Positions 385-16,950 of a stretch of 53,994 nt of DNA are shown here, one piece after another. The stretch covers positions 1 to 53,994 of the forward strand of contig JBGTGT010000126.1 in assembly GCA_041746575.1 (NCBI GenBank). The letters are read 5' to 3'. Every line of letters begins with the position of its first letter. The first letter of the stretch is position 1. The notes beneath the pieces are model-generated. The model had not been told where the DNA came from, searched no databases, and saw nothing but the letters and a program-made list of their open reading frames with translations. The translations under genes and the position numbers were made by a program. Source of the stretch: Microcystaceae cyanobacterium (GTDB lineage Bacteria; Cyanobacteriota; Cyanobacteriia; Cyanobacteriales; Microcystaceae).

Positions 385-470
385 ATCTAACGGTGAAGTG
401 CAGCGGCGGCAAACAATCTTAGACTTTTGTCAGAAAGCCTTTGCCCGTCCGCTGCCACGTAGTGTTGGGC
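385..470 (-). other. Integron attC site, complete (86 bp)
   Basis: Minus strand: R'' GCCCAAC, 5-nt spacer, L'' GTGGCAGC (one extra base versus L'), GG-A-CGG with an unpaired A, central loop, CCGCC, L' GCTGCAC, 6-nt spacer, R' GTTAGAT. It lies 18 bp after a cassette gene stop. Confidence 0.9.
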
Positions 471-488
471 TGCTGAACAAGCTGCTCC

Positions 489-908
489 TTACTTTGGTCT
501 AGGGCGTAATTCAAAGGAAAGATCAGCCCGGTAGAAGCAGACATCAAATTCTGTAAAGAAATTCATATGTCCCAAAATCAAAGGGACTTCTCTTGATTGG
601 GTCCAAGCGAATGCCAGCAATACTGGAGAAAATTCAGCGACAGTTGCCGATAACACCAACCCTCTCGCTTCCATACTAGCTAAGTTGCCACTCAACTGAA
701 TAGACATTGTCTGCTCTTCCCAGACAGCGCCTAACTCTAAGCCGATTTCATAAGGAAGTACATTGACACTTGCCCCAGTATCGAGCAAAGCCATGCTCTC
801 CACGGAAAGCTCCCTGTAAACCAGCGTTATTGGTAGGTACGGCATTGAGCTAGACAAGCCTTTGCTATTAGTCCGCTCAACAAAGGGGAACCGTTGACCG
901 TTAAGCAT
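489..908 (-). CDS. Retropepsin-like (clan AA) aspartic protease family protein
   Basis: LLDTGAS catalytic motif and C-terminal ILG motif. The start overlaps the upstream ORF stop (ATGCTTAA). Confidence 0.8.
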   Translation of the reverse strand: MLNGQRFPFVERTNSKGLSSSMPYLPITLVYRELSVESMALLDTGASVNVLPYEIGLELGAVWEEQTMSIQLSGNLASMEARGLVLSATVAEFSPVLLAFAWTQSREVPLILGHMNFFTEFDVCFYRADLSFELRPRPK

Positions 909-1161
909 TGCCCTTTTGCCATTCTGCTACAAGAAGGTCTGAAAGTCCTTGAGCGGCTCCGTAGGCATCATGAGGCGACCAAACAACCGCTTCAGTAGAC
1001 TCTAACTGTTTCAGCAGCGATTCCTCTTGAGATGAAAGAGCTTTAGCTTGTAACTCGCATCCTTCTTCTTTCGCAACTGCCAACAAAAGAAAATGAATGA
1101 GGCGCAATTTATCCTGATGAGAGAGTTGACTAACAACAGGGAATAATTCTGGCAATGCCAT
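901..1161 (-). CDS. Small hypothetical protein coupled to the protease (possible antitoxin-like partner)
   Basis: 86-aa ORF with an N-terminal LS..DKL.LI.FL helix and an 8-nt overlap with the protease gene. Confidence 0.65.
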   Translation of the reverse strand: MALPELFPVVSQLSHQDKLRLIHFLLLAVAKEEGCELQAKALSSQEESLLKQLESTEAVVWSPHDAYGAAQGLSDLLVAEWQKGNA

Positions 1162-1278: not shown

Positions 1279-3984
1279 TTATTTTTTCTTCCGTTTTTTC
1301 TTTTCAGGCTTAAACTTATCCAAATCAGTCTCTCCTGAGAATAAAAACTTAAAAAATGACTTATTTTGGTAACGACAGGTTTGACGTATACCCAGCAAAA
1401 CTAAATAATTGCTTGTTGGTTCTTCATGGAATGAAGCCTTGGAAATATCTCGCTGTATAGCAACATGTCTAATAGCATTCTCAGCGGTGTTATTATGCCA
1501 TGGCACACCATCTTGATAAAGAAAGGTAAATAGACTATTTCTATATTTCTTGAATTGTTGTTGATACCTCAGCACAAGCTCGGACTTATATTGCCTTCCT
1601 TCAATGTAATTCTCATAAAAATTGTCAACCTTTTGTTGGAATTTTTGAAGGTGATATTTCTTTAGTCCATACTTTTGAACAGCTTCCATGATAGGTATTA
1701 TTAAGCTTCTTACTTCTGAGATGAAGACTTCATATTCCATGTCAAATGGATTCTCTCTAAGATCTTTATTGAGATGTCGAATTAGATGAACCCAACATTT
1801 TTGGTGATTACAAGGAACGGAGTCATATCCAGTGTAAAAGTCAGAAATCAAGATTCCTTTATATCCTTCCAAGACCTCATTTACGATATTGGTTTCCCGT
1901 GTTTCTGTCAATTTGAAGACTACATATTTGCCATCAGTAAATACCCAAACATACCAGTTAACTCCTTTTATCGTGAAGTTGGTTTCGTCAACATGGATAA
2001 AAGAACTCTCTAACATTTTTTGGATGTTAGATCGCTCGGTTTTTGAATAATACTGAGCAAGTTTCCTCATGAAATATGAGATTCTGGTTGAAGAAATTTC
2101 CTCGTTGAATTGTTCTTTTGCAAATTCAAGAATACTTTCACGTGGCAAACGTAAAGCAACCCTTTGATAAATGATCCATGATTTAAAGCCATGCCCATAA
2201 AACTGGTGCCGTTCAAACTCTAATAGTTTAGGAGGGGGATAACTTCTCTGGCAATTTGCGCAATACCCATGAGAACCAATATATTTAGTTACAATCTTCT
2301 TGACTCCACTTTTTGTAAGGACCAAATCTCAAATAGTCCTACTGGTTTTAGTATTTACAACCTTAAGAGGACTATGACCACATCGAATACAGCTTTCTGG
2401 CTGCGATACTTCCAAGATTTTGTCAGGCCTTAATTTCGTTTTTGATGGTATTGAGCCTCCACGATTATTTTTGGTGATGACTTGACCTTGTCTGAAACTA
2501 ATCTTTCTTTTCTCATACTTGGCACTTGCAAATCTGAGAATCATCTCAAACTGGCTACTTACCCTTCCTCCTATCTCTGAAAAATTTTCTTTAGGAGTTT
2601 GAGCAAAATCAACAGCAGACAACGCATCAGCAGATTGTTGAATCTTTCTCAACTCATCTGCTAAAAGCTTTAAAGCATAACAGTCTTCTTTGTTATAGGT
2701 TATTAACTTTGATTTGTATTGAACCTCCTGGCTTTCATTCCAACGATGTCTCCACACAAGGCTCTGTATCCCGGAGGCATTAGGTGATGTCCAGGTTGCT
2801 CCCAAAAAACTTGCAACCTCTTTCAATTTATTGGAATAAACTGGGAAGTAAACCCTACCATAAATTTGCTTATTAACGTTGTCTAATCGAGCCAGAAGCA
2901 CTTCTTGTTCAGTTTTAAATCTTTTATCTAATACTTTTATTGCACGCACTTCATAACTACCATAATGATAAATAGGTGCATCTGGATACTGATTGACAAT
3001 AGCTAAAAACTCTTGCCAGATTTTTTCCTCGTCTGTAACATTATCAGCCCAGAGCGAATGATATTCTGTTACATCTCTTTGGCAAACTAGTACGCCAATC
3101 AAATAATATAGATTTTGATCAGGCAAACCCTCGATGTCTAAGTAAATTTCTATTTCTTGTCTTGGCAAGTCAGGCATCTCTTGTAAATAAATTTTTCTGG
3201 TGCGAATAGCAAGAGCCTGTAATCTAACATCGTGAGTTACTGCTGGAGATTTCTTAGCTCGTCTCTTACGCTTTCGCGGTTTGAATAAATAGGAAAGCTG
3301 CTTAACAGTAAAAATACCTTTTTTCTCATATTGGCGAAGAACTTTTGGAGTGACTTTATCTAAGAGACTTAAGTTGTCTTCTCGAATTGCGATTTCCTTA
3401 CACTTTTCTCGAAACTGACAGATAGGGCAATGTTTATTTAAGATGACAGGTACTTCCTCTATAGAAGGCTCACTTATCCACTCTTCTAATGGAGCCAATA
3501 GAGGTGTAATAAGTTTATTACTTTCTTCTAACTTGAGCCGTCGCGATTCACCTTTGACATTGACTATATGTCCCATTTTGGGAGATTTCCCCTGGATTTT
3601 TGCTAACACATAGCCAATAAACACCAATTTAAGTTTATCGATATCATTAATTTTGTAAGTTCCTATAAAAATAGTTGGTTCATAATTTAGATTGTCAATT
3701 CTTTTTAATATTGAGCAATAAGCCTGAAATTTTTCGGCTGATAGATTAGCATCAATTAGAAATTCATAATCTTTTTTAAGATTTTCAGTGCTATAGGGAT
3801 GAATATCACTGCATCTCTGTTCAATGATTTTCAAATTCTCGGTTTGATTTTCAAGCTGATGCTTTTCTAGGATTTTTTCATATTCATGTAGCTCTCCTCT
3901 ATCTTTACCGTGCATCAGTAAATATGCCTTGCGTGGGCATAAAGAGTATGCTTGCAAAATTTCAGAGGTTATAACTACATTCAT
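1279..3984 (-). pseudogene. TM0106-family (Cas4-like + HhH + RNase H-like) protein fused to a zinc finger and IS66 DDE transposase domain, with one in-frame TGA at 2329-2331
   Basis: ORFs 2329..3984 and 1279..2325 are in the same frame (...SRTI*DLVLTK...). Motifs: LCPRK; HCPICQFREKC; YLDIEG, HYGSYE, YNKEDC; CIRC...CANC; HVDET, ISDFY, CWVHLIR, NNTAENAIR. Confidence 0.8.
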
Positions 3985-4047
3985 GGCGTAAATTGAGTTC
4001 TAGGAAAATTCCCTCACAGAATCATGCAATAAAGTACTGAATTTTCA

Positions 4048-4134
4048 GGATAACGCCCCAAAAATCTTCATACATGCAATCTTTACCGATTGTCTCCCCG
4101 ATAGCTGCACAATGCCTTAATTCAGATGTTAGCT
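4048..4134 (-). other. Degenerate attC-like junction (AGCTAAC ... GTTATCC)
   Basis: The R''-like AGCTAAC follows the ABM gene stop and is complementary over 11 bp to the cassette start at 5523-5533. The span (87 bp) matches the intact attC, but internal palindromy is poor. Confidence 0.4.
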
Positions 4135-4152: not shown

Positions 4153-4773
4153 TCATGATCTCTCAAAAACGCTCACTACTTCGTATACGTGAAACTCGTT
4201 CTCTGCTAGCCCTCGCCAATAATCTCGCACTGGCGCAAACCGTTCTTCGGTTAATAACTTGTTGAAATGCTCTAACGTACTCCAAAATCCATAATTCATC
4301 GTGCGTGTCTCGTCTAATGAACGATGGAAGTTGACACACAGAAGATCGGGATGTTGCAGCGAAATCGCTGGAATCTCTGCCTCTAACGCTACAAGGCGAG
4401 GCTGATTTTCAGGCAATACCCGGAACTCTCCAAGGTGCAATAATCGTCCTGGTTTGATGGTCAAATCTGCGTCGTCCGGTTTGGAAACGGCAACCTCATA
4501 TACATGGGAATCCGATAAATTAAATTCTGAATATCCCTGCTGTGACTCTATAAAATCTGTATATGCTTGCTTTGTTTTCCATTGCAGATAGCACATGACT
4601 CGCTCTCCATCAAGACTACGATTCACGCTGCCTGACGCACATTCAGGCTGAGATTGCACAACGGATTGCACACGATTTGAGAGCTTTTCAATGAGTTCTT
4701 GTTGCTCGTCTGGGGAAGTAGAGAATAAGTCGATCGATGCCAGCAAAGTGTTGTTCTTTTGAATCGCAATCAT
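4153..4773 (-). CDS. Antibiotic biosynthesis monooxygenase (ABM) family protein, two-domain
   Basis: Two repeats of the (H/N)RSLDx.R..(Y/N)Y..W motif. GGAGG RBS upstream. Confidence 0.8.
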   Translation of the reverse strand: MIAIQKNNTLLASIDLFSTSPDEQQELIEKLSNRVQSVVQSQPECASGSVNRSLDGERVMCYLQWKTKQAYTDFIESQQGYSEFNLSDSHVYEVAVSKPDDADLTIKPGRLLHLGEFRVLPENQPRLVALEAEIPAISLQHPDLLCVNFHRSLDETRTMNYGFWSTLEHFNKLLTEERFAPVRDYWRGLAENEFHVYEVVSVFERS

Positions 4774-4807
4774 TCTGTACCTCCGAGTTTGAATAAGCAG
4801 CAGTTTG

Positions 4808-5434
4808 TTAGGCTGTTTTTGCTTCTACATGAACAACATTGTAAAGATGGAATTCATTACGGGCTAAACCTTCCCAATACGGTTTATCTGGATTGAACCC
4901 AGGCTGTTTGAGAATTGCTTCAAATGCCTCTTTACTCTCCCATTGACCATAATTGAACATTCGCGTTCCATCTAAACTGCGATGAAATGTTGCTGAAACT
5001 AATCCTGGTGAATTATTCATTGCTCGGTCAAGTTCAGCCGTTGTTCGCTTCACCATTTCTGGTTGATTAGATGGCATCATCCGAAACTCAGCAAGATGCG
5101 TAATGCGATCGCCCACAGCAACTTCAACCTCTGCCGATGCTGACCGACTAGCAGAAATCTCTAGTTGAAGAGAATCAGGTGGGAAAAATTCACCCAAAAT
5201 AGTTGGACGCGGCAAGCTACGGTGATCAAATTTAGGTTGCCACTGGCTGTACGTGAAGACACGAACTCCGTCTAAACTTTGATGCACACTAGCTGACAAA
5301 AAATAAGGATTAGATTGCCAAGATTTAATCTGCTCTTGGACAATTACTTTGACCAAGCCCGACTGATGACGTTCTGCAACCGTATACAAATCTAGTCCGA
5401 CGATCGCGGCATTAGTTCGATCAATCTGTACCAT
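4808..5434 (-). CDS. Antibiotic biosynthesis monooxygenase (ABM) family protein, two-domain paralogue
   Basis: HQSLDGVRVFTYSQW and HRSLDGTRMFNYGQW repeats. GAGGAG RBS upstream. Confidence 0.8.
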   Translation of the reverse strand: MVQIDRTNAAIVGLDLYTVAERHQSGLVKVIVQEQIKSWQSNPYFLSASVHQSLDGVRVFTYSQWQPKFDHRSLPRPTILGEFFPPDSLQLEISASRSASAEVEVAVGDRITHLAEFRMMPSNQPEMVKRTTAELDRAMNNSPGLVSATFHRSLDGTRMFNYGQWESKEAFEAILKQPGFNPDKPYWEGLARNEFHLYNVVHVEAKTA

Positions 5435-5526
5435 AAGTACTCCTCAATGCTTGTCGGCTTCTATGACTTGATGCTAAACGCCAACCGAGGATCTGACAAC
5501 CACCGTCTCAACCCAGAAACGAAGCC

Positions 5527-5560
5527 AGCTAACGGTTCAAATCAGCGGCGGTAGTTATGT
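5527..5560 (-). other. Internally deleted attC (34 bp)
   Basis: Minus strand ACATAAC-TA-CCGCC-GCTGATT-TGAACC-GTTAGCT. The right arm aligns with that of attC 385-470, and R'' overlaps the MTase stop codon. L'' and the loop are missing. Confidence 0.75.
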
Positions 5561-6862
5561 GTTTAGTAAAGTCAGTTGTCTTGGGTGAAATAATTCACTA
5601 GATAATAAAGAATCACTCCCCGGGTCAACCTTTGCGTCAATACTATTTAATAGAGCAATTATACTTCGACCAACTGCGTAAGCTAAATTCACAGGCACAG
5701 CATTACCGATTTGTTTGTATTGACTACTTACTGAACCTGAAAAATGCCATTCATCTGGAAATGTTTGTACCCTGGCATACTCTCTGATTGTTAAGGGTCT
5801 TGTCTCTTCTGGATGACATCTCTCGGTTTGTTTTTGAGCGGGAGAACAGGTGAGAGTTAAGCTCGGCTCATCCCATGAGAGCCGACGTGCCATACCAGTC
5901 TTACCACCACCTAAGAAATAACTACCCTGCATATATTCTCTTTGGAGATCATCGGGCAAATCTCTCCAGTAACCACCCTGAGGAACATAAGATAATATTT
6001 CCCTTTTTCTCTTAGGGTAAGATTGACCTTCTGATTCTGGCACATCAGTATCGTATAGTTCGCCAGATTTCAAAGCATCTTTTAGAACTAATATTCTGTA
6101 ATACGGTGATGGCCATTTGAATTTTGCAAACTTAACCAAATCGTTTCTGATGCCAACAAAAAATAAACGCTCTCTTTTTTGGGGGACGCGATAGAACAAT
6201 GCTTTTAGAACTTTTGGCTCAATAAGCGTATACCCTAGATCCGAGATAATAGATTTTATAGTAGACAGAGTTTTCCCATTGTCATGATTTAATAAACCAC
6301 GCACATTTTCACCCAGAAAAACTTTTGGTCTTATTTCTTTTACTGCTCTGGAAAATTCAAAAAATAGCGTACCTCTGATATCCTCAAATCCCAACTTTTC
6401 GCCCGCATAAGAAAATGCTTGACACGGAAATCCGCCAGAAACAAGATCAATATCAATGAATTTAGTAAAATCTACATTCTTCACATCGCCTTGAATGACA
6501 TTCCATTTAGGACGATTAGCTTGAAGAGTCTTACAAGCATCTTCATCGAGTTCATTTAGAGCAACTGCATTAAATCCAGCTTTTTCTAGCCCTAGAGCAA
6601 GTCCACCCGCACCCGCGAAAAGTTCAACAGATGAAAAAGCTCTTGCAGGCTTAACATCCAATTCTTCATCCCAATTACTTTTCATCATATTCTTCACTTC
6701 TTCAAACTGAATTAGTTGAGAAGCTTTATATTCTTTTTTATTCGTAATAGGATTTTGAAAAGGAATCAGTCTCCCACTTTTTTCCCACTTCAATAGCGTA
6801 GCCTTTGATACGGAAACTATATCTGCCAGCAATTCTGCTGAAATCGAATCTGAGTCAAACAT
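5555..6862 (-). CDS. DNA (cytosine-5)-methyltransferase with N-terminal HTH (Eco47II/Sau96I-like)
   Basis: Motifs LFAGAGG, GGFPCQ, ENVRGL, QKRERLF and YKQIGNAVP, plus an N-terminal VSKATLLKWEKSG HTH. The ATG at 6862 overlaps the endonuclease stop. Confidence 0.92.
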   Translation of the reverse strand: MFDSDSISAELLADIVSVSKATLLKWEKSGRLIPFQNPITNKKEYKASQLIQFEEVKNMMKSNWDEELDVKPARAFSSVELFAGAGGLALGLEKAGFNAVALNELDEDACKTLQANRPKWNVIQGDVKNVDFTKFIDIDLVSGGFPCQAFSYAGEKLGFEDIRGTLFFEFSRAVKEIRPKVFLGENVRGLLNHDNGKTLSTIKSIISDLGYTLIEPKVLKALFYRVPQKRERLFFVGIRNDLVKFAKFKWPSPYYRILVLKDALKSGELYDTDVPESEGQSYPKRKREILSYVPQGGYWRDLPDDLQREYMQGSYFLGGGKTGMARRLSWDEPSLTLTCSPAQKQTERCHPEETRPLTIREYARVQTFPDEWHFSGSVSSQYKQIGNAVPVNLAYAVGRSIIALLNSIDAKVDPGSDSLLSSELFHPRQLTLLNT

Positions 6863-7598
6863 TGAAATCATTAAACCCTTCATATTCTTTAAAAGAGAGC
6901 AGATAAATACTTTTCAATAAATTAGGATCGATATCTCTTAACTCTTTAAATACAGAATTAGACTCTGCTTCAAAATTGCTATCCTCAACAACATCTTGAA
7001 TTATTAAAGGGAGCTTTTCACACAATTTCTTAAACGCAATTTTGCTACCAGTCACCAATTCATAGAACCTATCAATGGAAACACGACGTATTCTTTCGTT
7101 GGAGACAGCTTGACCGTCTAAACTCATTCTCCACATAACATTTTGGCTTCTTCGTGCAATCACTTCTACTAGCAGACATGTTGCATCTGGATTAGATAGT
7201 AAAGTATTTTGCATTCTCATGTAAGTCTTCTGAGCAGATGAAGAATTCATGGTGTTATGCTTGTTTTTCATCTCTACAAAATACATGAGTTTAGTATTGA
7301 CAACGTCATATCCTTGTGACGGTACTTCCCATCCGTGACCTAGGTATCGAAATATGTTTTGATGAAAATATCCAATATGGTTTGTATTAGATTTATCTAT
7401 TTGCCTTAGTACCTCACTTTCGATCACGAATTCAATATCTTTACGATAAACCCTTGTATCAAATGTCAATTTGATTGGATCTACTAAATTTTTGTTGAAT
7501 TCGGCCAAGTCAATGCTAAATCTGTATTTCTTTACAGTTTCTTTGACATGATTATAAATATTGTCATTACTTATAAAGTCAAGATTATAATCTTTCAT
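6855..7598 (-). CDS. Type II restriction endonuclease, Eco47II family (probably GGNCC)
   Basis: DPIKLTFD, RQIDKSNTNHIGYFHQ and GYDV...EMKNKHNTMNS motifs. Coupled to the C5-MTase. Confidence 0.8.
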   Translation of the reverse strand: MKDYNLDFISNDNIYNHVKETVKKYRFSIDLAEFNKNLVDPIKLTFDTRVYRKDIEFVIESEVLRQIDKSNTNHIGYFHQNIFRYLGHGWEVPSQGYDVVNTKLMYFVEMKNKHNTMNSSSAQKTYMRMQNTLLSNPDATCLLVEVIARRSQNVMWRMSLDGQAVSNERIRRVSIDRFYELVTGSKIAFKKLCEKLPLIIQDVVEDSNFEAESNSVFKELRDIDPNLLKSIYLLSFKEYEGFNDFNV

Positions 7599-7739: not shown

Positions 7740-7760
7740 ACATAACTATTTACTATACCG
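7740..7760 (-). other. attI core (GTTATGT at 7746-7740)
   Basis: Lies between the intI 5' end and the first cassette. It is exactly complementary to the R'' ACATAAC that ends the first cassette (5560-5554). Confidence 0.75.
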
Positions 7761-7764
7761 ACAT

Positions 7765-7915
7765 TTTCTGGATAGTCAACCCCCACGGGGCAAAAAAACG
7801 AAACTTTCCGTATAATCCCCCTATAGAGAATATTATCCAGAAACATTCCGCACAATTTCGGATGATAGCCAGAAACTTTCGGGATAACATACCGAATAGT
7901 CGTACTATCCAGAAA
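7765..7915. repeat. TA(T/G)CCAGAAA motif repeated between attI and intI
   Basis: Direct copies at 7834-7843, 7866-7875 and 7906-7915, and an inverted copy at 7765-7774. Confidence 0.7.
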
Positions 7916-7933
7916 GATTCTGAATATCCCCCG

Positions 7934-8899
7934 ATGGATAAACCCCCCAAAAAGCTCCTTGAACAAGTCCGTGATGTCATTCGTGTGAAGCATTACTCTT
8001 ATAAAACGGAAAAAAGTTACATTAATTGGATCAAACGCTATATTCTCTTTCATAATAAACGGCATCCACGAGAAATGGGTGGAAAAGAAGTTGAAGAATT
8101 TTTAACTTATCTGGCTGTTGAGGAAAATGTCGCCGCTTCAACTCAAAATCAGGCTTTAAGTGCTGTTTTATTTCTCTATAAAGAAGTTCTGAAACAAGAA
8201 TTAGATTTAAAGGTTGATGCAGTACGAGCAAAACGAAGTCGTTATGTACCAACCGTTCTGACAAAAGTGGAAGTTCTAGCAATTATTAATCACTTATCTG
8301 GGCTTCATCAATTAATCGTTAAATTGCTTTATGGAACGGGATTACGCCAAACGGAATGTTTACAATTACGGGTTAAAGATATAGATTTTGCTCAAAATCA
8401 AGTGATAGTTAGAGATGGAAAAGGCATGGAAAGTCGGGTCACGATGTTACCGATAAGTTTAGCTGAAGAATTAAAGTTTCATTTAGAAATTGTCAAGCGG
8501 TTACATCAACAAGATTTAGAAAAAGGTTATGGTTCAGTTTACTTGCCTTTTGCTTTAGAAAGAAAGTATAAAAATGCAGATCGAGACTGGGTTTGGCAAT
8601 TTGTTTTTCCCTCAGATCGTATTTCTCAAGATCCTCGAAGTGGCAGTATTCGTCGTCATCATCTTCATGAAAGTGGTTTACAAAAAGCTCTGAAACAAGC
8701 TGTTAAAATGGCAGGAATCAATAAGCGAGTCAGTTGTCATACTTTTCGTCATAGCTTTGCAACACAATTGTTACAAGATGGTTATGATATTAGAACAGTG
8801 CAAGAATTATTAGGACATAAAGATGTCAAAACAACAATGATTTATACTCATGTTTTAAACCGAGGGGGGAGAGGGGTAAAAAGTCCCCTTGATATTTAA
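7934..8899 (+). CDS. intI: Integron integrase (tyrosine recombinase)
   Basis: [30 protein letters not shown], the IntI-specific insert ([27 protein letters not shown]), HTFRHSFA and [14 protein letters not shown]. Likely start is ATG 7934. Confidence 0.95.
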
Positions 8900-9776
8900 A
8901 ATCCCCCCAACCAACCAATGAACCACCCTATCCACCTCCTGTAACAAATCACACCCCAACAAACACCCTGACACATATTCCCCTAAATTATCCATCATTT
9001 CAGGATGAATCACCCTTAACACCCCTTCCCCATACCACTTTAACATCGCCTCAGCTAACCTTTCTTCATCCAATAACCCCAACCTCATCAACCCCTGCTT
9101 ATACTCATCCCTCAACCCTTCCAACCCCTTAAAAACCCCTTTCTCCCTCATCCTACCCTCAATTACCTTGCCAAACTCCCATAACCCCTGTAAAATCTCC
9201 TCATCATAACTCACCCCATCCCCCACACAATTATTCTCATCCGCAGCAATAAACCCCTTTCCCATTTCCGACATCAACACCCTGCTATTTTCCAACCCTA
9301 CCCCATGAGTTAAACACACCCTTATCCCCGAAACTTTATGATTTCGATGCCAATACGTCTCTCCACACTGCTGTAAATCTTCTATTAAACATAGGGGACA
9401 AAATCGCAGATATTCAGGATAATACAGCTTGAACTTAGGGATTTTTGCTACCTGTGCGATAGATTTACTTTCCTTCCCCTCCATCAATTCCTGTAACCGT
9501 TTTACCTCACGATTGGTCAAAAACGTCCGATAATAGGGGGAAAAAAGTATGTTTTGACCATATCTGATTAAGGGTTAAATTTGACCCCAAAGGTAACTTA
9601 TTGATTAGAGTCGCCAAATTATTCGGTAAACCTAGATAATATTGCTTTGCTCCCGTTGTTTCAAATAAATCAAGCTGTGTCTGTCGAAAATTACGATTTC
9701 CACTCCGAACATGATAACGACACACCACGCTGTAAAACAGTTCATCAGGGTAGGGAATTGGAAAGAAATGGAGCAT
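8855..9776 (-). pseudogene. tniQ: Short TniQ (TnsD N-terminal-like domain), split by one extra base in a T6C5 run
   Basis: FPIPYPDELFYS start and LRFCPLC..GETYWHRNH..VCLTH zinc motif. Removing one base at 9536-9546 restores HTFFPYYRTFLTNRE and a ~306-aa protein. Confidence 0.8.
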
Positions 9777-9780
9777 AAAA

Positions 9781-9808
9781 AGGCAGGAGGCAGAGGGCAG
9801 AAGGCAGA
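9781..9808. repeat. Heptamer tandem repeat (AGGCAGA)~4, STRR-like
   Basis: aggcagg aggcaga gggcaga aggcaga, immediately upstream of tniQ. Confidence 0.65.
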
Positions 9809-9852
9809 AGTGAAGAAGGAAGGATAAAAGTCATGTTAGATAAATTAAAGGT

Positions 9853-11598
9853 TTAAATAACCAAAAAATCCACTTCAGGATGGTCTTTAATAATACTTTC
9901 CTCTACAAAAGGTTCATATACAGAAATTTGATTCTTTTTCGCGTCCTCAAGAATCTTCCTCATATCTTGTTCCGTATAATTCGGCTTTCTCCCCACTTTC
10001 CCGACTCCATTCTCCCTTCTTCCTACTTTCCCTCTCCCTGCTCCGTTCTCCCTGCTCCCTGCTTCCCCAAACGGTTCTCCCTGTAACGAAATCTGATAAG
10101 CAAGTTTCACTAGCTTAGAAATGTCCGTTTCTTCGGGATTTTCCTCAATTACCCTCTCTCCTAACGCTTTAGCCTGAATAGGTTCAACCTCTAAATCCAA
10201 TAACTCAATAATAACCTGCTTCAGTCGGGGTGACATTGCGCTTTTATGCTTCTGATTGCGTCTCATGCGCCGCATTTCTGCTAAATCATCAAAATTGATG
10301 TCACCTAAGCATTTTTCTCGATATTCAGCAATATTAATCGGTGCAATATCTCTATACTTCTTCATCCGTATTATATCCCCTGAACGAATCGCATCTAACA
10401 TCGGTTTCACCAGATATAATCCCTCATCTGCTACCTTGTGAATTAACTCAACCGTGATTATTTCATCGCCACCGAGAGAAATCGCTCGCCATTGCACCAT
10501 TTTGTAGAGTTTAATCAAAATATCAATAATTCCTTGGGTTTCCTCATAAAGTGCATCACCAATTTCCTGAGAATAGGGAACTTCCGTCTTTGTCCATTGA
10601 TATTCCCACATTCCTTCGGTGAAAAATTGCCAATTTTGGTCATTTTCCATCCGTTTCCAACGCACTCCACCTTCTCCTGTTCCCCGTCTCGCATTGCGGA
10701 AATTCCCCGTTAAAATCGGTTCAGCTTCATTTGTCCCCACTCTAATCACGGGAATCCCAATAATATTATCCATTTTCACCAGAAAATTAAGTAAATCATC
10801 CCGTCCTCTCCTCGCATTGGCAATATTCTGCATCTCATCAATGACTAATAAGCCTAAATGGTGCGTATGCGCTAACTGTGCCACTTGCGCTAACATATAA
10901 TCCTCAGAATTACCCTTAGAACCGAATTTTTTAAAGTTATTCGTCCCTAATAACCTATCAATTCCTAAAAAAATATCCGTACATAACCCTTTAAGAGAAC
11001 CCGCATGAGGACAATCTACTTTTAGCCAAACAATCTGAGTAACACTATGTTGGGGATGAATAATAACCTGTGGATATAATTCAAGAATATTCGCTAAATT
11101 TGTTGATTTTCCTAATCCTGATTCCCCAATAATCGTTAAACCCGAAGCGGTTGTCGGTGTCGTTATTACCGAGACATAATCCTCTAAATGATGACCATCT
11201 TTCGCTTGAATCGCCTCATAAATTTGTCTTGAACGACGAGCGTATTCAGGTAACAGAGGATTTCGGGAAATATAACCACTCATCAACAAAACACAGATAG
11301 TTTGCTGTAAATCAACCGTTTTTGATAAAGGGTCAAAATACCGTGATAATCGCTCAATACAATGAAAACGGTCATGTGCTTCTAATTCTCTCTCAGAAGG
11401 GTCATAAATCGGATATTTAGCCACCAAATCAATAAATTGCTCTTGAGAAAAAATCGGGGGTAACGCTTCAATCATCGGATTATTGTTGTATTCCACCTGC
11501 TTAAACTGGCGATATTTAGCAATTGAGGCTTGCATTCCATTGGGAATATCTGTCCAGTCATAATAACGATATTTATCAATAAAATCTTTACTTTCCAC
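9853..11598 (-). CDS. tnsC: Tn7 AAA+ ATPase regulator TnsC
   Basis: YNNNPMIEALP, Walker A GESGLGKS, KVDCPHAGSLK, Walker B LLVIDEMQ, and FRNARR. Confidence 0.93.
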   Translation of the reverse strand: MESKDFIDKYRYYDWTDIPNGMQASIAKYRQFKQVEYNNNPMIEALPPIFSQEQFIDLVAKYPIYDPSERELEAHDRFHCIERLSRYFDPLSKTVDLQQTICVLLMSGYISRNPLLPEYARRSRQIYEAIQAKDGHHLEDYVSVITTPTTASGLTIIGESGLGKSTNLANILELYPQVIIHPQHSVTQIVWLKVDCPHAGSLKGLCTDIFLGIDRLLGTNNFKKFGSKGNSEDYMLAQVAQLAHTHHLGLLVIDEMQNIANARRGRDDLLNFLVKMDNIIGIPVIRVGTNEAEPILTGNFRNARRGTGEGGVRWKRMENDQNWQFFTEGMWEYQWTKTEVPYSQEIGDALYEETQGIIDILIKLYKMVQWRAISLGGDEIITVELIHKVADEGLYLVKPMLDAIRSGDIIRMKKYRDIAPINIAEYREKCLGDINFDDLAEMRRMRRNQKHKSAMSPRLKQVIIELLDLEVEPIQAKALGERVIEENPEETDISKLVKLAYQISLQGEPFGEAGSRENGAGRGKVGRRENGVGKVGRKPNYTEQDMRKILEDAKKNQISVYEPFVEESIIKDHPEVDFLVI

Positions 11599-13822
11599 GT
11601 TTGCGCTCCTTGCGTTTTTTCGCTAATAAATCTAAGTGATTAGGTTCAGTTGATTGAGGAGATGAAGACGGTTTAGCGTCCTCTTTTGGTTTCTCAATTT
11701 CTTGAGTCGATAATGGCTTCTTATCTGGTTGAAGTTCAAAGGCTTCTACCTCCCTTCTTTCTTCTTTTTCCGTTGCTCTGTGTTCTCGAATGCCAGAGGT
11801 TTTCTGTAAATTACTTTGGCTTTTATCTTCGTATTGTTCTGTTTCTTGTTTAGCACGATGAGCAATACTTTCTAGTTTAGCCATTAAATCAACTTCTTGT
11901 TGACGTTGTTTTCCTCCTCGTTTCTTACTTTGTAAATCTTCATAAGCTAATAAATATTCTACATCATAAATCGTTTTATGAGCATAGCGTTCATCTGGGT
12001 CAAGTAAAAAGCATTTCTCAAAGTCTCGACCATCAGGAGAGGGTAAATAAATAAAATCTGTCCGTCTAGGATCATAAGAAATTTGTAAAGATTTTTCCTC
12101 CTTTGATAGCATTCGACTTCTCGCTTTTTCAAACCACATTTCTTCAATGGCTTTTTCGCAAATATAGTGCATTGATTTGAAACGAATTCCCCTTTCTGTA
12201 ACTCTAGCTTTTCCCGTTGGCATCAAATTTAATTTAACAATATCTTCATTCATTGTTCTCAACTTTCCTGAACGTTTATTAATTCCCCATTGCCATAATT
12301 CAAGTGGAATGGGAGGAACATTATCAGCAATCATTTCCTCATCTCGATTATAAGTTTTTAACTCATGGCTGTTATGATAAAGAACAATTTCAAGAATCAT
12401 TTCCGTAAATTGATCAATATCTAAACGAGCATCTAAGCGGTAATCTTTTGCCCCTCTTTCTCGAAAATCTACATCAATAAACCCCGGCAAAAAAGGTTTT
12501 ACTCGCTCATGAATCACTTTAAAATGTCTTTCCACTAATCCTTTCCAATCAGCACGATAAGGAGCAGCATTTTCTACCCGAATAAATAAATTAGGAATGA
12601 TCGTTTCTGCCGTCATTCCTGCTAATTCTCCTCTATCTCCTAAAATACATTCAGGAAGATGATGACATGGCCATTCTTCTTCGATAATAGAAATCCCCAT
12701 TTCCTGACAAAACGAGACTTTATCTGTCACCACATTACTCAAAGCCATCATTGCACCTAACCATGAGGGGCCTTCTAAACCTACATAAACCCCGACTATC
12801 ATCCGACTAAATACATCAATTACGACATAAATAACAGGTCTTCCAATAATCCAATCACGGTTATATTGAGAGACTAGATAAACATCAGCAACCGTCGCAT
12901 CAATTTGATAGCGAGAACCGGGGCCAATTGTTTCCTGTCTCGATGTTCCCAACATGGCTCGATGCTCTAAAGCAAAGCGTTTAGCTCCCCTTCGTGCGGT
13001 AATTGTTTTTTCTAAATTACTGTTTTCGGTTTCATACCAATAGCGAAATTGATTAAAAGTCGGTTGTTTCTCTGGGGGAATCAATACCGAAAATTTAACA
13101 TTATTTTCATCATAATGAAACTCCTCAGCATAATACTCTTTAATCATCAATTTATATACCGTCATTAAGGAGTTTTGTTTCTGATTTCGATAGAATTTAT
13201 TAATAGCAATTCTAAAAATTTGTCGATCTTGTTCAGTAATATTAATGCCTTCCCCAATTTCAGGCTCATGCTTATATTTTCTCGGTCTTCCTCTTTTTTT
13301 GCTTCCTGCTTTTCTCCGCTTTCCTTTTGCGCCTGAATTAACATAATCAGGTAATAAAGCGTTTTTAACCTTACCTCTTTGCCAAAATCTCCGTAAGTGC
13401 TTGTAAATAACTTTTTCAGCTAATTTCTCTCCCTCATGACTTTCTTGATATTCAGTAATAACTTGCTGAAGTAGTTTACCTCGAAGATAGCGATAATAAA
13501 TATCAGGTTCTTGAGTCACTAAGGAAGAAATGATTTCCCACGCATTATCTCGCAATTCTTTCTCTTTTAAAGATAAGCTTTCTTCTTGAACAATTTTTCC
13601 CCAAGGATCTACCTCTAACTTAGAGGCTTCTTGATTCTTCAAGGCTTCCTTTAAATCTTTAATGGCATAACTACGAGGAAATCCTTTAGTCGCATAAATA
13701 TCAAAAATAAAAGCAACTGCATAACCGTCATCAATCCAAACCACTCGTTCAATCAGAGGGTTTTCTGCATCATCCGATTGCCATTGTATAAGGTCATTAA
13801 CAAAGATTTCATTATTCATCAT
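11588..13822 (-). CDS. tnsB: Tn7 DDE transposase TnsB
   Basis: GPGSRYQIDAT, IDVFSRMI, GDRGE and KGLVERHF motifs. Confidence 0.93.
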   Translation of the reverse strand: MMNNEIFVNDLIQWQSDDAENPLIERVVWIDDGYAVAFIFDIYATKGFPRSYAIKDLKEALKNQEASKLEVDPWGKIVQEESLSLKEKELRDNAWEIISSLVTQEPDIYYRYLRGKLLQQVITEYQESHEGEKLAEKVIYKHLRRFWQRGKVKNALLPDYVNSGAKGKRRKAGSKKRGRPRKYKHEPEIGEGINITEQDRQIFRIAINKFYRNQKQNSLMTVYKLMIKEYYAEEFHYDENNVKFSVLIPPEKQPTFNQFRYWYETENSNLEKTITARRGAKRFALEHRAMLGTSRQETIGPGSRYQIDATVADVYLVSQYNRDWIIGRPVIYVVIDVFSRMIVGVYVGLEGPSWLGAMMALSNVVTDKVSFCQEMGISIIEEEWPCHHLPECILGDRGELAGMTAETIIPNLFIRVENAAPYRADWKGLVERHFKVIHERVKPFLPGFIDVDFRERGAKDYRLDARLDIDQFTEMILEIVLYHNSHELKTYNRDEEMIADNVPPIPLELWQWGINKRSGKLRTMNEDIVKLNLMPTGKARVTERGIRFKSMHYICEKAIEEMWFEKARSRMLSKEEKSLQISYDPRRTDFIYLPSPDGRDFEKCFLLDPDERYAHKTIYDVEYLLAYEDLQSKKRGGKQRQQEVDLMAKLESIAHRAKQETEQYEDKSQSNLQKTSGIREHRATEKEERREVEAFELQPDKKPLSTQEIEKPKEDAKPSSSPQSTEPNHLDLLAKKRKERKRGK

Positions 13823-14642
13823 CGTCCCTCACAATCTTTTGAATCGCTTGAGTCGATAAATTACTAGAGATTTTTGTATTAAACATATCCACAATAACCT
13901 CTTTTCTCGCCACTAAATGCCTAAATAAAGAGAGTGCTGTTCCTGCTTCTAAATTCATGTCCTTATCTAAAGCAGTCGTAACATTAGTAACGGTTGTATT
14001 TTCGCTCCTTAGCTTCTCTTTCAAAGTACAGGCGATACGGCGAAGTTCGACAATATCTGCACTTTCAGTTGATTCTAAATGATATGTCGGGTGGATCCAG
14101 TCAAGATTACTCGCAAAAATCTTGGAAATCCCTTTTTCAGTAATAATTCCCCAATCAATTTCTAAAGCTTGATAATAGCGTCTCTCAATCTCTAATTTGG
14201 CTACTGTCGTTTTTTTCTCCAAATCTTTGGTTGATTTAACCGTTCTCACCACTTGAACAGGTTTTCCCTCTCGTTCAATGGTCAGCATAAAGTCTGTGGT
14301 TAGGACGTAGGGAATGTGATGTTGAGGATCTTCAGGATACTTAAAATTCATCTCATCCGCAATTTTCAAAGCCAAATCGAGATCCGACAACGGGTATTGC
14401 TCTCTGATGTCGATTACGATGTCAGACCACTCAAATAAATAAAATGTCCGTTTTTCTTGATCTGAGAGTAAATGATGGATGCGACCCGATTTGCATCCTG
14501 GAATTCGGTGGGAGCGACCCTTAGAGGGAAAATCCTGAATCTTAATCCAAGGAACATAGTCTTTTCCTGTTCCTTGACCACGACCTTCCTTTTTATAGCG
14601 GTCAAACTTAGCCTCTGTCCACTCTCGTTTAGTCCTAGCCAT
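13812..14642 (-). CDS. tnsA: Tn7 endonuclease TnsA
   Basis: EGRGQGTGKDYVPW, HHLLSDQE, DIREQYPL, TTDF and KLEIERRYY motifs. Confidence 0.93.
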   Translation of the reverse strand: MARTKREWTEAKFDRYKKEGRGQGTGKDYVPWIKIQDFPSKGRSHRIPGCKSGRIHHLLSDQEKRTFYLFEWSDIVIDIREQYPLSDLDLALKIADEMNFKYPEDPQHHIPYVLTTDFMLTIEREGKPVQVVRTVKSTKDLEKKTTVAKLEIERRYYQALEIDWGIITEKGISKIFASNLDWIHPTYHLESTESADIVELRRIACTLKEKLRSENTTVTNVTTALDKDMNLEAGTALSLFRHLVARKEVIVDMFNTKISSNLSTQAIQKIVRDDDE

Positions 14643-14654
14643 AGCGAACCTCTG

Positions 14655-14744
14655 TAGATAGTGTTCCCACTATCTAAGTTTACCAACTTTATTATAAATT
14701 TACTGACTTTATTTTAAACTTACCAACTTTATTCTCTTTTTACA
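14655..14744 (-). repeat. Tn7 right end: TGT terminus, three TnsB sites at 20-bp period and a fourth degenerate site
   Basis: Minus strand TGTAAAAA-GAGAATAAAGTTGGTAAGTTT has the same spacing as Tn7 TGTGGGCG-GACAATAAAGT. Repeats at 14676-14693, 14696-14713 and 14716-14733. Candidate target duplication ATAAT at 14745-14749. Confidence 0.88.
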
Positions 14745-14760
14745 ATAATACAAAACAAAT

Positions 14761-16644
14761 TTATTCAACCGTAACAGACTTAGCGAGGTTTCTGGGTTGA
14801 TCGACATCTAATCCTCTTCGTGCCGCAATATGATAGGATAACAATTGCAAAGGAATTACCACTAAAATAGGGGAAATCAATTCATCCACAATAGGAATTG
14901 GTAATAAATCATCAAACACCTTTTTTGCATCTTTATCCCCTTCCGCGATGACTCCTAATAACCGTGCATCTCGCGCTTTTGCTTCTTGTGCGTTGGATAA
15001 TACCTTATCATAAACCATGCCCGGAACAGCGATCGCAACAACAGGAACTTTGGCATCTAATAGGGCAATAGGGCCATGTTTCATTTCCCCTGCGGGATAA
15101 CCTTCAGCATGAATATAACTGATTTCTTTTAATTTTAATGCTCCTTCTAAGGCAATGGGAAAATTAATGCCTCGACCTAAAAAGATAAAATCTTGCGTAT
15201 CATTAAACTCATGGGCTAATTCTTCAATGGGTTTATTTTGCTGTTCTAAAACTAACTCAATTTGACGAGGGAGTTGACGTAACCCTTGAATAATCGATTC
15301 AATTTTTTCTAGAGATAAAGTTTGTTGACGATAGGCCAATTCTAGGGCTAATAGATAAAATCCCGTTAATTGTGCGGTAAAACTTTTCGTCGCCGCAACG
15401 CCAATTTCAATACCCGCTTGGGTATTAATAATATTATCTACCAAATAAGCGAGGGTGCTTTCAGGACGGTTGGTAATACCAAGTAAATAGGGGTGATATT
15501 GCTTATCTAAGCCCAAACGACGTTTTTTTTCTGTCTCTAATGCGGCTAAGGTATCAGCCGTTTCTCCAGACTGGGTAACCCCGATAGTTAAGGTATTCGG
15601 CAGTAACGGTGAAGGGGCATAGCGAAATTCCGAGGCATACTGTACCATTGTCGGAATACTCGCCAATTGTTCAATGAGATATTTACCCACTAAAGCGGCG
15701 TGCCAACTCGTACCACAAGCTAAGATTTGAATGTGGTCTATTTTTTCGGGCAATTCCATTAACCCTAAATTAATTGGGCTAAATTCTGGTTGATCTTGTG
15801 CTTGCCAATGGGGGCTAAGATAGGTTTCTAGACAAGCGCGAATCACGCTAGGTTGTTCGTAGATTTCTTTTAACATGAAATGGCGGAAACCTTGTTTTTC
15901 GACTGTTGTTGTCGTCCAGTCTAAAGTCTTAGGAATCTTGCGGAGTCTTTTTCCTGAAAAATCATAAATTTCTACCCCTAAAGGCGTTAAACGAGCAATT
16001 TCACCATTATCCAATGATAAAACGGTATGGGTATAGGGTAATAAAGCAGTCACGTCTGAGGCACAGAAAAACTCTCCCTGACCAAAGCCAATCGTTAAAG
16101 GAGCTTGCTGACGGGCTAAAATAAGCTCATCGGGGTAATCTTGACAAAGAATGGCTAAAGCAAAAGCCCCTTCGAGACGATGAATCGCTTTTTGGATCGC
16201 TTCAATAAAATCATCGCCTTGGGGACTTTCAGGCAAAAAATGAGCGATTAGATTAGGAATAACTTCTGTATCAGTTTCTGAAGAAAATTTATATCCTTTA
16301 CTCATTAATTCTTCTTTAATGTCTTGATAGTTCTCGATAATACCATTCTGCACCACTGCAACTCGACAGTGCATATCCCGATGGGGATGCGCGTTATGTT
16401 CTTCTGGTTTGCCATGAGTTGCCCAACGAGTGTGACCAATGCCAATATGAGAAGAATTGCTTTCCCGTTCTAATTTTTCCCGTAGGTTGTAGAGTTTTCC
16501 TTTGGCGCGGGTGCAATGTAATTGACCGTCTAAAACCGTTGCAACGCCAGCAGAATCATATCCTCGATATTCTAGTCGTTCTAAGCCGCTAATTAAGACA
16601 TCTATCGCCGTTTGTGTGCCAATATAACCGACAATTCCACACAT
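14761..16644 (-). CDS. glmS: Glutamine--fructose-6-phosphate aminotransferase
   Basis: Starts MCGIVG, contains GHTRWATHG and ends PRNLAKSVTVE. Confidence 0.98.
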   Translation of the reverse strand: MCGIVGYIGTQTAIDVLISGLERLEYRGYDSAGVATVLDGQLHCTRAKGKLYNLREKLERESNSSHIGIGHTRWATHGKPEEHNAHPHRDMHCRVAVVQNGIIENYQDIKEELMSKGYKFSSETDTEVIPNLIAHFLPESPQGDDFIEAIQKAIHRLEGAFALAILCQDYPDELILARQQAPLTIGFGQGEFFCASDVTALLPYTHTVLSLDNGEIARLTPLGVEIYDFSGKRLRKIPKTLDWTTTTVEKQGFRHFMLKEIYEQPSVIRACLETYLSPHWQAQDQPEFSPINLGLMELPEKIDHIQILACGTSWHAALVGKYLIEQLASIPTMVQYASEFRYAPSPLLPNTLTIGVTQSGETADTLAALETEKKRRLGLDKQYHPYLLGITNRPESTLAYLVDNIINTQAGIEIGVAATKSFTAQLTGFYLLALELAYRQQTLSLEKIESIIQGLRQLPRQIELVLEQQNKPIEELAHEFNDTQDFIFLGRGINFPIALEGALKLKEISYIHAEGYPAGEMKHGPIALLDAKVPVVAIAVPGMVYDKVLSNAQEAKARDARLLGVIAEGDKDAKKVFDDLLPIPIVDELISPILVVIPLQLLSYHIAARRGLDVDQPRNLAKSVTVE

Positions 16645-16950
16645 ATTCGTTACCTGTGATTTGGCCAATGGTTAATAGTTTATCCCATTAGGGACGAAAG
16701 TTCACGGATGAGGGTTTCCGCTTGATATAGCACGACCTATTTAAGGGTTTGACGTTTTACTATCTTCTTCAACTTTCGACTCTCGAAAACTCGGCTGAAA
16801 ATAGGTCAAATATCTAATTTTGTCAAGCTATATTTGCTGATCATAGACAAAACAATTTTGGGTTGAGACTCCAGTTACTCTTACTAAATTAAATGCGTAG
16901 TACCATAACCTTTAGAGCCTAAACGTTTTTGCCTTTTTTGAATTCTTTGG

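Follow-up and report, generated by a model that had tools for sequence, protein, structure and literature searches.

We analyzed a 53,994-nucleotide stretch of DNA (hereafter, the window) at the start of contig JBGTGT010000126.1 from the genome of a Microcystaceae cyanobacterium (assembly GCA_041746575.1). Its minus strand, read from 3984 to 1279, carries a single reading frame of 901 codons whose sole internal stop is a TGA at codon 552, and in this one frame a TM0106 module is joined to a zinc finger and an IS66-type DDE transposase domain. Recognized from the reading frame and from domain profiles, the TM0106–IS66 fusion gene (1279..3984) is intact in a relative, locus L001. The fusion is real, and it is a widespread, functionally unstudied derivative of IS66.

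From the N-terminus, the protein comprises a Cas4-like iron–sulfur (Fe-S) domain (residues 1–207; 3364..3984, minus strand as for all parts of the gene), in which four cysteines (C16, C186, C189, and C195) are kept and the PD-(D/E)xK set, in the window's clade, is absent. A helical and basic linker (residues 208–276; 3157..3363) leads to a DEDDy-type 3ʹ–5ʹ exonuclease domain (RNase_H_2; 2620..3156) with D283, E285, E345, Y430, and D434. These are followed by a basic linker with an IS66-type zinc finger (C532, C535, C575, and C578; 2194..2619), split by the stop, and by an IS66-type DDE domain (1312..2193) with D666, D715, C730xxH733, and E835. In profile searches, the N-terminal part matched TIGR03491 (TM0106; E = 7.5e-68, residues 5–443) with 229.6 bits against a cut-off of 97.45, covering profile positions 1–460 of 462, and also matched PF13482; the C-terminal part matched PF03050 (E = 8.4e-35) and scored slightly below the cut-off of NF033517. 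The Cas4 family profile TIGR00372 gave 14.7 bits against a cut-off of 65. These results agree with the first-pass annotation, which had described a frame of about 900 codons combining nuclease-like and IS66 parts, with Fe-S-type cysteines, an RNase H/DEDD-like domain with intact acidic residues, and an intact zinc finger and DDE triad. The helix-hairpin-helix (HhH)-like segment that it also listed stands by resemblance; no hidden Markov model (HMM) matched it, and residues 223–247 were modeled with low confidence.

In the AlphaFold model of the fusion protein (mean predicted local distance difference test score 83, predicted template modeling score 0.51), residues 1–207 superposed on Cas4 of the Cas4/1 complex (7mi4; Z 17.1, root-mean-square deviation 3.3, 191 aligned residues), and residues 277–455 superposed on the proofreading exonuclease domains of family-B polymerases (5mdn, Z 16.4). 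The top Foldseek match, and the best one for the DDE part, was the DDE transposase of ISCth4 (6xgx, E = 4.9e-07), an element of the IS256/Mutator type; a C/DxxH motif is common to ISCth4-type and fusion DDE domains. However, the similarity to ISCth4 is at the level of the fold only (~14% identity), and ISCth4 acts on defined terminal repeats. A sequence search against solved structures gave no match for the fusion protein, an ESM Atlas search returned only clusters of the fusion family itself, and promoter and terminator scans remained at chance level.

The premature stop in the window copy (2329..2331, minus strand) is real at the contig level. It was covered by contigs of runs X1 and X4, the X4 contig with 0 differences; X1 is possibly the source of the assembly, and both runs belong to one study. 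In L001, which has 95% protein identity, codon 552 is a leucine codon within an open frame of 901 codons. An assembly error behind the stop was rejected, as contigs from two runs carry it. The window copy is inactivated by a recent stop.

The first-pass annotation had considered that a lack of full-length fused homologues would make the gene a chance juxtaposition. Among the 120 best matches, 114 covered at least 97% of the protein and carried both Pfam domains, and 90 proteins of 860–1100 residues were present in the top 150 of an HMM search of 50%-identity representatives, so that the fusion is a genuine conserved family. The related loci were distributed over cyanobacteria, Chloroflexota, Planctomycetota, Bacteroidota, delta- and gammaproteobacteria, and several archaea; a metagenome scan gave only eight loci, and no relative was found in viral contigs. 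Residue conservation was counted over 103 aligned, diverse, full-length members. The exonuclease residues D283, E285, and D434 were present in all 103, as were D666, D715, and the CxxH motif of the DDE domain, with E835 in 102 and the Fe-S cysteines in 98–103. The dN/dS ratio (nonsynonymous to synonymous substitution rates) was 0.09–0.28 over the whole gene in nine pairs and did not exceed 0.5 in any domain for which a value was obtained; the family is under purifying selection. In a quick, unrooted tree of the zinc finger and DDE domain, in which the comparison rows were mostly cyanobacterial, 35 fusion rows and 30 ordinary IS66 rows fell on opposite sides of one long branch (support 99 in the Shimodaira–Hasegawa-like approximate likelihood ratio test, SH-aLRT), and the fusion side split into two subfamilies. 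In seven loci of the window's subclade (L001, L003, L004, L151, L158, L167, and L168), a short conserved motif was noticed by eye about 20 nt before the ATG, possibly the −10 box of a leaderless transcript.

The N-terminal half shares with TM0106 proteins (TIGR03491; COG2251/PF13482 with DUF83 in PMC3985635) the Fe-S Cas4-like domain, the linker, and the DEDDy exonuclease, with the same motifs; other TM0106 members are described there with AAA helicase domains. The Cas4 catalytic aspartate was kept in 56 of the 103 fusion members and absent in the window's clade, and no (D/E)xK is conserved. The earlier proposal that the PD-(D/E)xK residues are lost thus stands for the window's clade; the loss is not specific to the fusion, however, because stand-alone cyanobacterial TM0106 proteins also have no canonical (D/E)xK, and it is therefore not a product of the fusion event. 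Almost every genome of the sampled cyanobacterial families had stand-alone TM0106 as one copy (e.g., 20/20, 45/45, and 25/25), whereas the fusion has a DDE partner and is sporadic, mosaic, and mobile. The genome of the window has its own stand-alone gene (C75:37757-38755), in which the Cas4-like site is non-canonical.

The C-terminal half resembles the ISBst12 group of IS66 (e.g., ISDge4), whose members, according to PMC12898284, have a single open reading frame (ORF), short imperfect terminal repeats, and an 8-bp duplication, and in which the absence of tnpA and tnpB is normal. The fusion likewise has a zinc finger, the PF03050 D..D..E triad (intact in the family, interrupted in the window copy), a CxxH motif, and one ORF. 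No frame of the size of tnpA or tnpB flanks the window gene, and no terminal repeats above chance were found beside it, as the first-pass annotation had reported. Unlike the ISBst12 group, the fusion has ~450 N-terminal residues of the TM0106 module and DDE domains on a separate deep branch.

The two were compared using 33 ordinary single-ORF IS66 loci, from which 3 without a whole ORF and 4 cut by contig ends were removed, leaving 26 controls. GTAA-type paired ends were found at 13 of the 26 controls compared with 1 of 50 fusion loci (p = 7.7e-7), and the sole fusion pair was weak (11/16 match) and had no duplication. Perfect 8-bp duplications flanked 8/26 controls versus 0/50 fusion loci, and a general inverted-repeat score of at least 13 was reached by 16/26 controls versus 2/49 fusion loci. 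The ungapped inverted-repeat score in 55 fusion loci, and the score extended into the coding sequence in 49, were at the same level as mismatched-pair controls, and direct repeats flanking fusion loci were at chance level. Neither 6-mers in the flanks of 45 loci nor synonymous-site conservation in 31 genes gave a signal of hidden ends.

Copy number differed as well. The fusion was found in 4 of 401 genomes of the phylum, as a single copy in each. None of 19 genomes held two full, near-identical copies, and 7 of the 19 held at least two divergent ones; closest to duplicates were a partial duplicate of 99.8% identity beside copies of another insertion sequence (IS) (L010) and a 240-residue fragment at 90% (G882). 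Ordinary IS66 controls reached 11 matches per genome. Comparisons with empty sites showed variable slots between genes, with no duplication. At the site of L047, the flanking kinase and SpoU genes are either side by side or separated by other inserts in relatives without the gene; the L047 gene fills this variable slot without a duplication, although the slot is 12–14% diverged. No clean empty site was found for L056 and L166. Standard IS66 ends, 8-bp duplications, and multiple copies, by which the first-pass annotation would have recognized an ordinary IS with a passenger domain, were thus not seen. The fusion is not an ordinary IS66 element, and it should not be filed as IS66, as Cas4, or as a cassette.

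The borders of homology were examined in 10 pairs of loci with 80–95% DNA identity. Homology started at most 70 nt from the start codon in 9 of them and ended within ~35–45 nt of the stop in 7, at points that differed each time, with no fixed position. Because homologues of other array accessory genes (ABM and M52) show a similar erosion, such gene-hugging borders are not diagnostic alone.

The alleles are mosaic, and the transposase half was swapped in place at two orthologous sites. Between L027 and L070, which have both flanks in common, the proteins were 84–97% identical over the first 300 residues and 22–48% after residue 450. In one Anaerolineae slot behind a capsule-synthesis gene, the identity of L016 and L011 fell from 72–98% to 24–50% near residue 450, and the G916 copy in this same slot, with SHMT downstream as in L016, belongs to the other DDE subfamily. 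L025 and L034 have only the Cas4-like domain in common. Site counts supported mosaicism in L027/L070 (p = 2e-30), L016/L011 (p = 3e-16), and L025/L034 (p = 4e-20), with breakpoints picked after inspection of the data, and two control triplets gave 0.05 and 1.0; by a preset rule, 2 of 9 close pairs scored as mosaic. The plasmid flanks of L002 and L014 were 90–91% identical around alleles that were only 29–70% alike from segment to segment, and L019 (685–6688) carries two fusion genes of different subfamilies in tandem, ~320 nt apart. We infer that chimeras may arise when a second copy lands beside a resident one and a deletion then passes through the conserved exonuclease region.

In the first-pass annotation, the fusion was carried in a cassette array and perhaps moved by the integron. 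Like cassettes of Tn7-borne class 2 integrons, the window copy does lie within the array region, with intI/attI on one side and an attC on the other, inside a Tn7-like element at glmS and among restriction–modification (RM) and candidate defense genes. However, it is not an integron cassette proper, having no attC of its own, and it sits where the upstream attC is cut after R''. No attC was found between the fusion gene and PDC-M52A in the window, and the attC at 385..470 has no matching R' upstream. The segment common to the window, L001, and run X5 begins at 4127, the base next to a lone R'' box (4128..4134, minus strand). The M52 pair carries its own attC in three other cyanobacteria, and in L139 attC sites stand on both sides. 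With the fusion lacking an attC, a lone R'' at its border, and the M52 pair bearing its own attC elsewhere, the block of fusion and M52 genes has therefore replaced most of one attC here. This block is 94% identical in DNA to that of L001, yet the downstream attC differs: the site after M52B (385–470) and its counterpart in L001 (3856–3941) are strongly different, the divergence beginning right after the stop codon.

Most homologues lie outside integrons. Integron sites were found at 5 of 70 related loci, namely attC at L001, L008, L012, and L048 and an attI-like site at L026, which does not support movement by the integron. Two custom attC finders were insensitive, one missing the sites at L008 and L012 and the other missing known sites, and an attC covariance model (without base pairs, hence sequence only and of low sensitivity) re-found only its own training sites in 91 sources; the integron counts are therefore lower bounds. 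The fusion copy of L012 may be a true cassette, a judgment made by eye. Similar repeat-rich, attI-like regions occur in L026 (9800–9990) and L048 (6480–6780); in L026 the fusion follows directly after this region, and no integrase-sized frame is among the three ORFs upstream.

Leftward from glmS, the window contains a Tn7 end followed by tnsA, tnsB, tnsC, and a split tniQ; next come an integron integrase convergent to these genes, the Eco47II-type RM genes, an internally deleted attC, the ABM gene pair, the fusion, PDC-M52A/B, and a full attC. The Tn7-like part (8855..14744, minus strand) comprises tnsA, tnsB, tnsC, a tniQ that is both frameshifted and truncated, and, just downstream of glmS, one end bearing three TnsB-type sites; this was the sole Tn7 end found in the genome. 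The integrase (7862..8899, plus strand) scored above the cut-off of TIGR02249, with a probable attI/promoter region at ~7743–7930, and two more partial copies of the attI/intI 5ʹ region (7743–8289) are present in the same genome (C120:70359-70905 and C80:43116-43299, 90% and 84% identity). The region 7862–16668 is thus a cyanobacterial Tn7-like element at glmS bearing an integron, with tniQ frameshifted and truncated where intI converges on it. The arrangement resembles class 2 integrons in Tn7, and no description of a Tn7-like element at glmS with an integron in cyanobacteria was among the literature matches listed.

The array begins with the Eco47II-type restriction endonuclease and C5 methylase (5555..7598, minus strand, as for all following features). 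Behind the methylase lies a short attC remnant (5523..5562), internally deleted to ~35 nt with R'' and R' both retained. The two ABM-domain genes (4153..5434) form one cassette, to which the lone R'' box at 4128..4134 belongs; the box complements the R' near 5527–5533, and the remainder of that attC is missing. With the methylase attC deleted and the ABM attC cut, the array looks locked. The 5ʹ leader of the fusion (3985..4127) is common to L001 and run X5, and its homology breaks off precisely at the upstream cassette's R'' box. Downstream of the fusion, the candidate defense pair PDC-M52A/B (489..1161), a small protein and an aspartyl-protease-like protein, accompanies the fusion in L001, X5, and X6 and forms a separate cassette in other cyanobacteria; the pair is common in cyanobacteria, where it often precedes an attC, and several variants occur in runs X1, X4, X5, and X6. 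The complete attC after PDC-M52B (385..470) is part of the M52 cassette. Positions 1–141 are the end of a repeated element that is also found at the ends of five other contigs and that truncates both the array and the contig.

Across the family, the neighbors were heterogeneous, and no conserved partner gene was found. Fusion genes were seen, among other places, on plasmid backbones, on an island with a duplicated proS 3ʹ end, in integrons, and in plain housekeeping regions, and the neighbors include RM, toxin–antitoxin (TA), AbiU, PD-T4-4-like, and PDC systems. The fusion is kept at the same slot in five Anaerolineae genomes. Contig ends cut 7 of the 70 loci; of the others, 45 were intact and 18 broken. 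Fusion genes split by other ISs were seen in L005, L006, L015/L052, L020/L063, and L165, the interrupting element being an ordinary IS66 in L015/L052 and an ISL3 in L020/L063. On cyanobacterial mobile DNA, a SNF2 helicase gene and an unannotated gene of 346–350 residues adjoin the fusion in L002 (6703–9919), L014 (3902–7118), and L166 (2740–5463); the same pair occurs in many genomes without the fusion and is possibly a defense module.

As it has no end signals or multiple copies, unlike its jumping relatives, the fusion looks like a recruited transposase or one that moves in a new way. Our best reading, which we hold tentatively and at a little less than an even chance, is that of a recruited transposase–exonuclease that acts on DNA ends in genetic conflict and is carried passively. 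The family would be old and of single origin, an ISBst12-type single-ORF IS66 transposase having been fused behind a TM0106 module and its cognate ends lost. It would now be an accessory enzyme encoded by a single gene, dispersed as cargo of integrons, plasmids, and islands and also by way of variable slots between core genes, with alleles that turn over and recombine as those of defense genes do. In favor of this reading are the conserved catalytic residues, the purifying selection, the lack of ends, duplications, and copy bursts, the retention at one Anaerolineae slot, the carriage on plasmids, an island, and integrons, the RM, TA, AbiU, PD-T4-4-like, and PDC neighbors, and the position of the fused DDE domains on one side of a branch. 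Judging from the predicted folds, the nuclease-deficient Fe-S Cas4-like domain may bind free DNA ends or overhangs, with the DEDDy domain trimming the 3ʹ strand and the DDE domain nicking or strand-transferring the end without a sequence-specific terminus. The conflict with foreign DNA would consist in damaging or mis-joining free-ended incoming or replicating DNA, or in toxicity. Several points weigh against the conflict enzyme. The DDE triad, which an active integrase requires, is kept in full, and the 18 broken copies among 63 uncut loci fit a selfish element equally well. Many fusion loci lie among housekeeping genes, and TA, RM, or defense genes were among the nearest two genes on each side at 14/26 cyanobacterial fusion loci compared with 4/17 IS66 controls (p = 0.064), or 6/17 on a looser count (p = 0.35), differences that are not significant and that come from a hand tally with unequal windows. 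PADLOC models (2023 library) gave only weak Cas4 matches to the fusion protein, and we know of no defense mechanism for the TM0106–IS66 architecture. In addition, short-read assemblies hide multi-copy elements, and just 7 of the examined genomes had high contiguity, with contigs of megabase size or no more than 3 contigs.

The same biochemistry would serve a selfish, end-less mobile element, a reading that differs from the conflict enzyme in substrate and beneficiary and that we consider possible but clearly less probable. Here the protein would capture DNA ends near its own gene, at breaks or on fragments entering competent cells, then trim and integrate them, so that the moving unit would barely exceed the ORF and would have variable borders; a new copy would land in or beside a resident one and form a chimera. 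The varying, ORF-hugging borders, the in-place swaps of L027/L070 and L016/L011, the different alleles in one plasmid slot (L002/L014), and the tandem subfamilies of L019 all speak for it, as do the 7 of 19 genomes with divergent copies, the invariant DDE triad, and the proportion of broken copies. Set against this are the lack of recent near-identical duplicates, the one usable empty site without a duplication, the similar borders of the ABM and M52 homologues, and the possibility that mosaics come from copies that arrive in tandem at hot spots and then undergo deletion, or from transformation. An accessory repair or recombination enzyme, that is, a mobile paralogue of the single-copy TM0106 gene whose DDE domain joins or nicks ends for the host, is less likely still: the near-universal stand-alone gene (also in the genome of the window), the proofreading type of the exonuclease fold, the presence of Dna2 among the weaker Foldseek matches, and the UvrD, RecD2, RecQ, or XPB-like helicase genes beside some copies favor such a role, but the fusion is sporadic, often broken, mosaic, located on mobile DNA, and without a conserved partner. 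The first-pass annotation had drawn a parallel with Cas4–Cas1 and Cas2–DnaQ, which would make the fusion an adaptation module for storing foreign DNA in an array or for building integron cassettes. The combination of an end-binding domain, a trimming exonuclease, and an integrase resembles adaptation modules, the N-terminal fold matches Cas4 of the Cas4/1 complex, and six loci including the window touch integron sites, with the window junction exactly at the R'' box. However, the integrase of the fusion is an RNase H-fold DDE domain and not Cas1, the Cas4 site is degenerate, and no Cas2 or effector genes lie nearby. Because no spaced-repeat (CRISPR-like) array was found in the 70 loci by a 14-mer test and no cas gene among ~255 annotated neighbors, the analogy is unsupported, and with the attC model finding only its training sites we regard this role as very improbable. 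The least probable, and largely refuted, is an ordinary ISBst12-group IS66 with a passenger domain and ends too decayed to be seen. The C-terminal half does have the full zinc finger and DDE layout, NCBI names many homologues "IS66 family transposase," and half of the true controls (13/26) also failed the strict end test; against it stand the contrast in paired ends with those controls, the absence of duplications and copy bursts, and the lack of fixed borders even in pairs of 89–95% identity.

Under the PF03050 family, supplement file 2 of PMC3985635 (2014) has an entry for a Ktedonobacter "RecB family nuclease" together with PF13482 and DUF83, and the accessible main text has no comment on it. 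No study of the fusion came up in literature searches that covered it, its domains, or ISBst12, most subscription papers being outside their reach. The architecture was thus already known as a listing of 2014, and what is new is the comparison with matched IS66 controls, the in-place swapping of transposase halves, and the attC junction.

Databases file such proteins as IS66 transposases or RecB-like nucleases. In at least 90 clusters at 50% identity, from many bacterial phyla and from some archaea, the family keeps both of its active sites intact, without the features that define an IS. It would be either a prokaryotic DDE transposase recruited for conflict or repair, or a DDE element that moves without terminal repeats, and both would be new. 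A bolder reading, which we think rather doubtful, is a DDE element or enzyme of a new class that works without transposon ends: a one-polypeptide, sequence-independent integrase in which the dead Cas4 domain would grip any free end, the exonuclease of the same protein would trim it, and the DDE domain would join it to the genome. If true, this would explain the variable borders that hug the ORF, the half swaps in place between alleles of less than 50% identity, and junctions such as that at the R'' box, and it would provide a new route of gene capture and possibly a tool for integrating arbitrary linear DNA. Both alternatives can be tested with one soluble-looking protein of 900 residues and two active-site mutants, and the fusion would offer a way into the function of TM0106, which nearly all of the sampled cyanobacteria carry.

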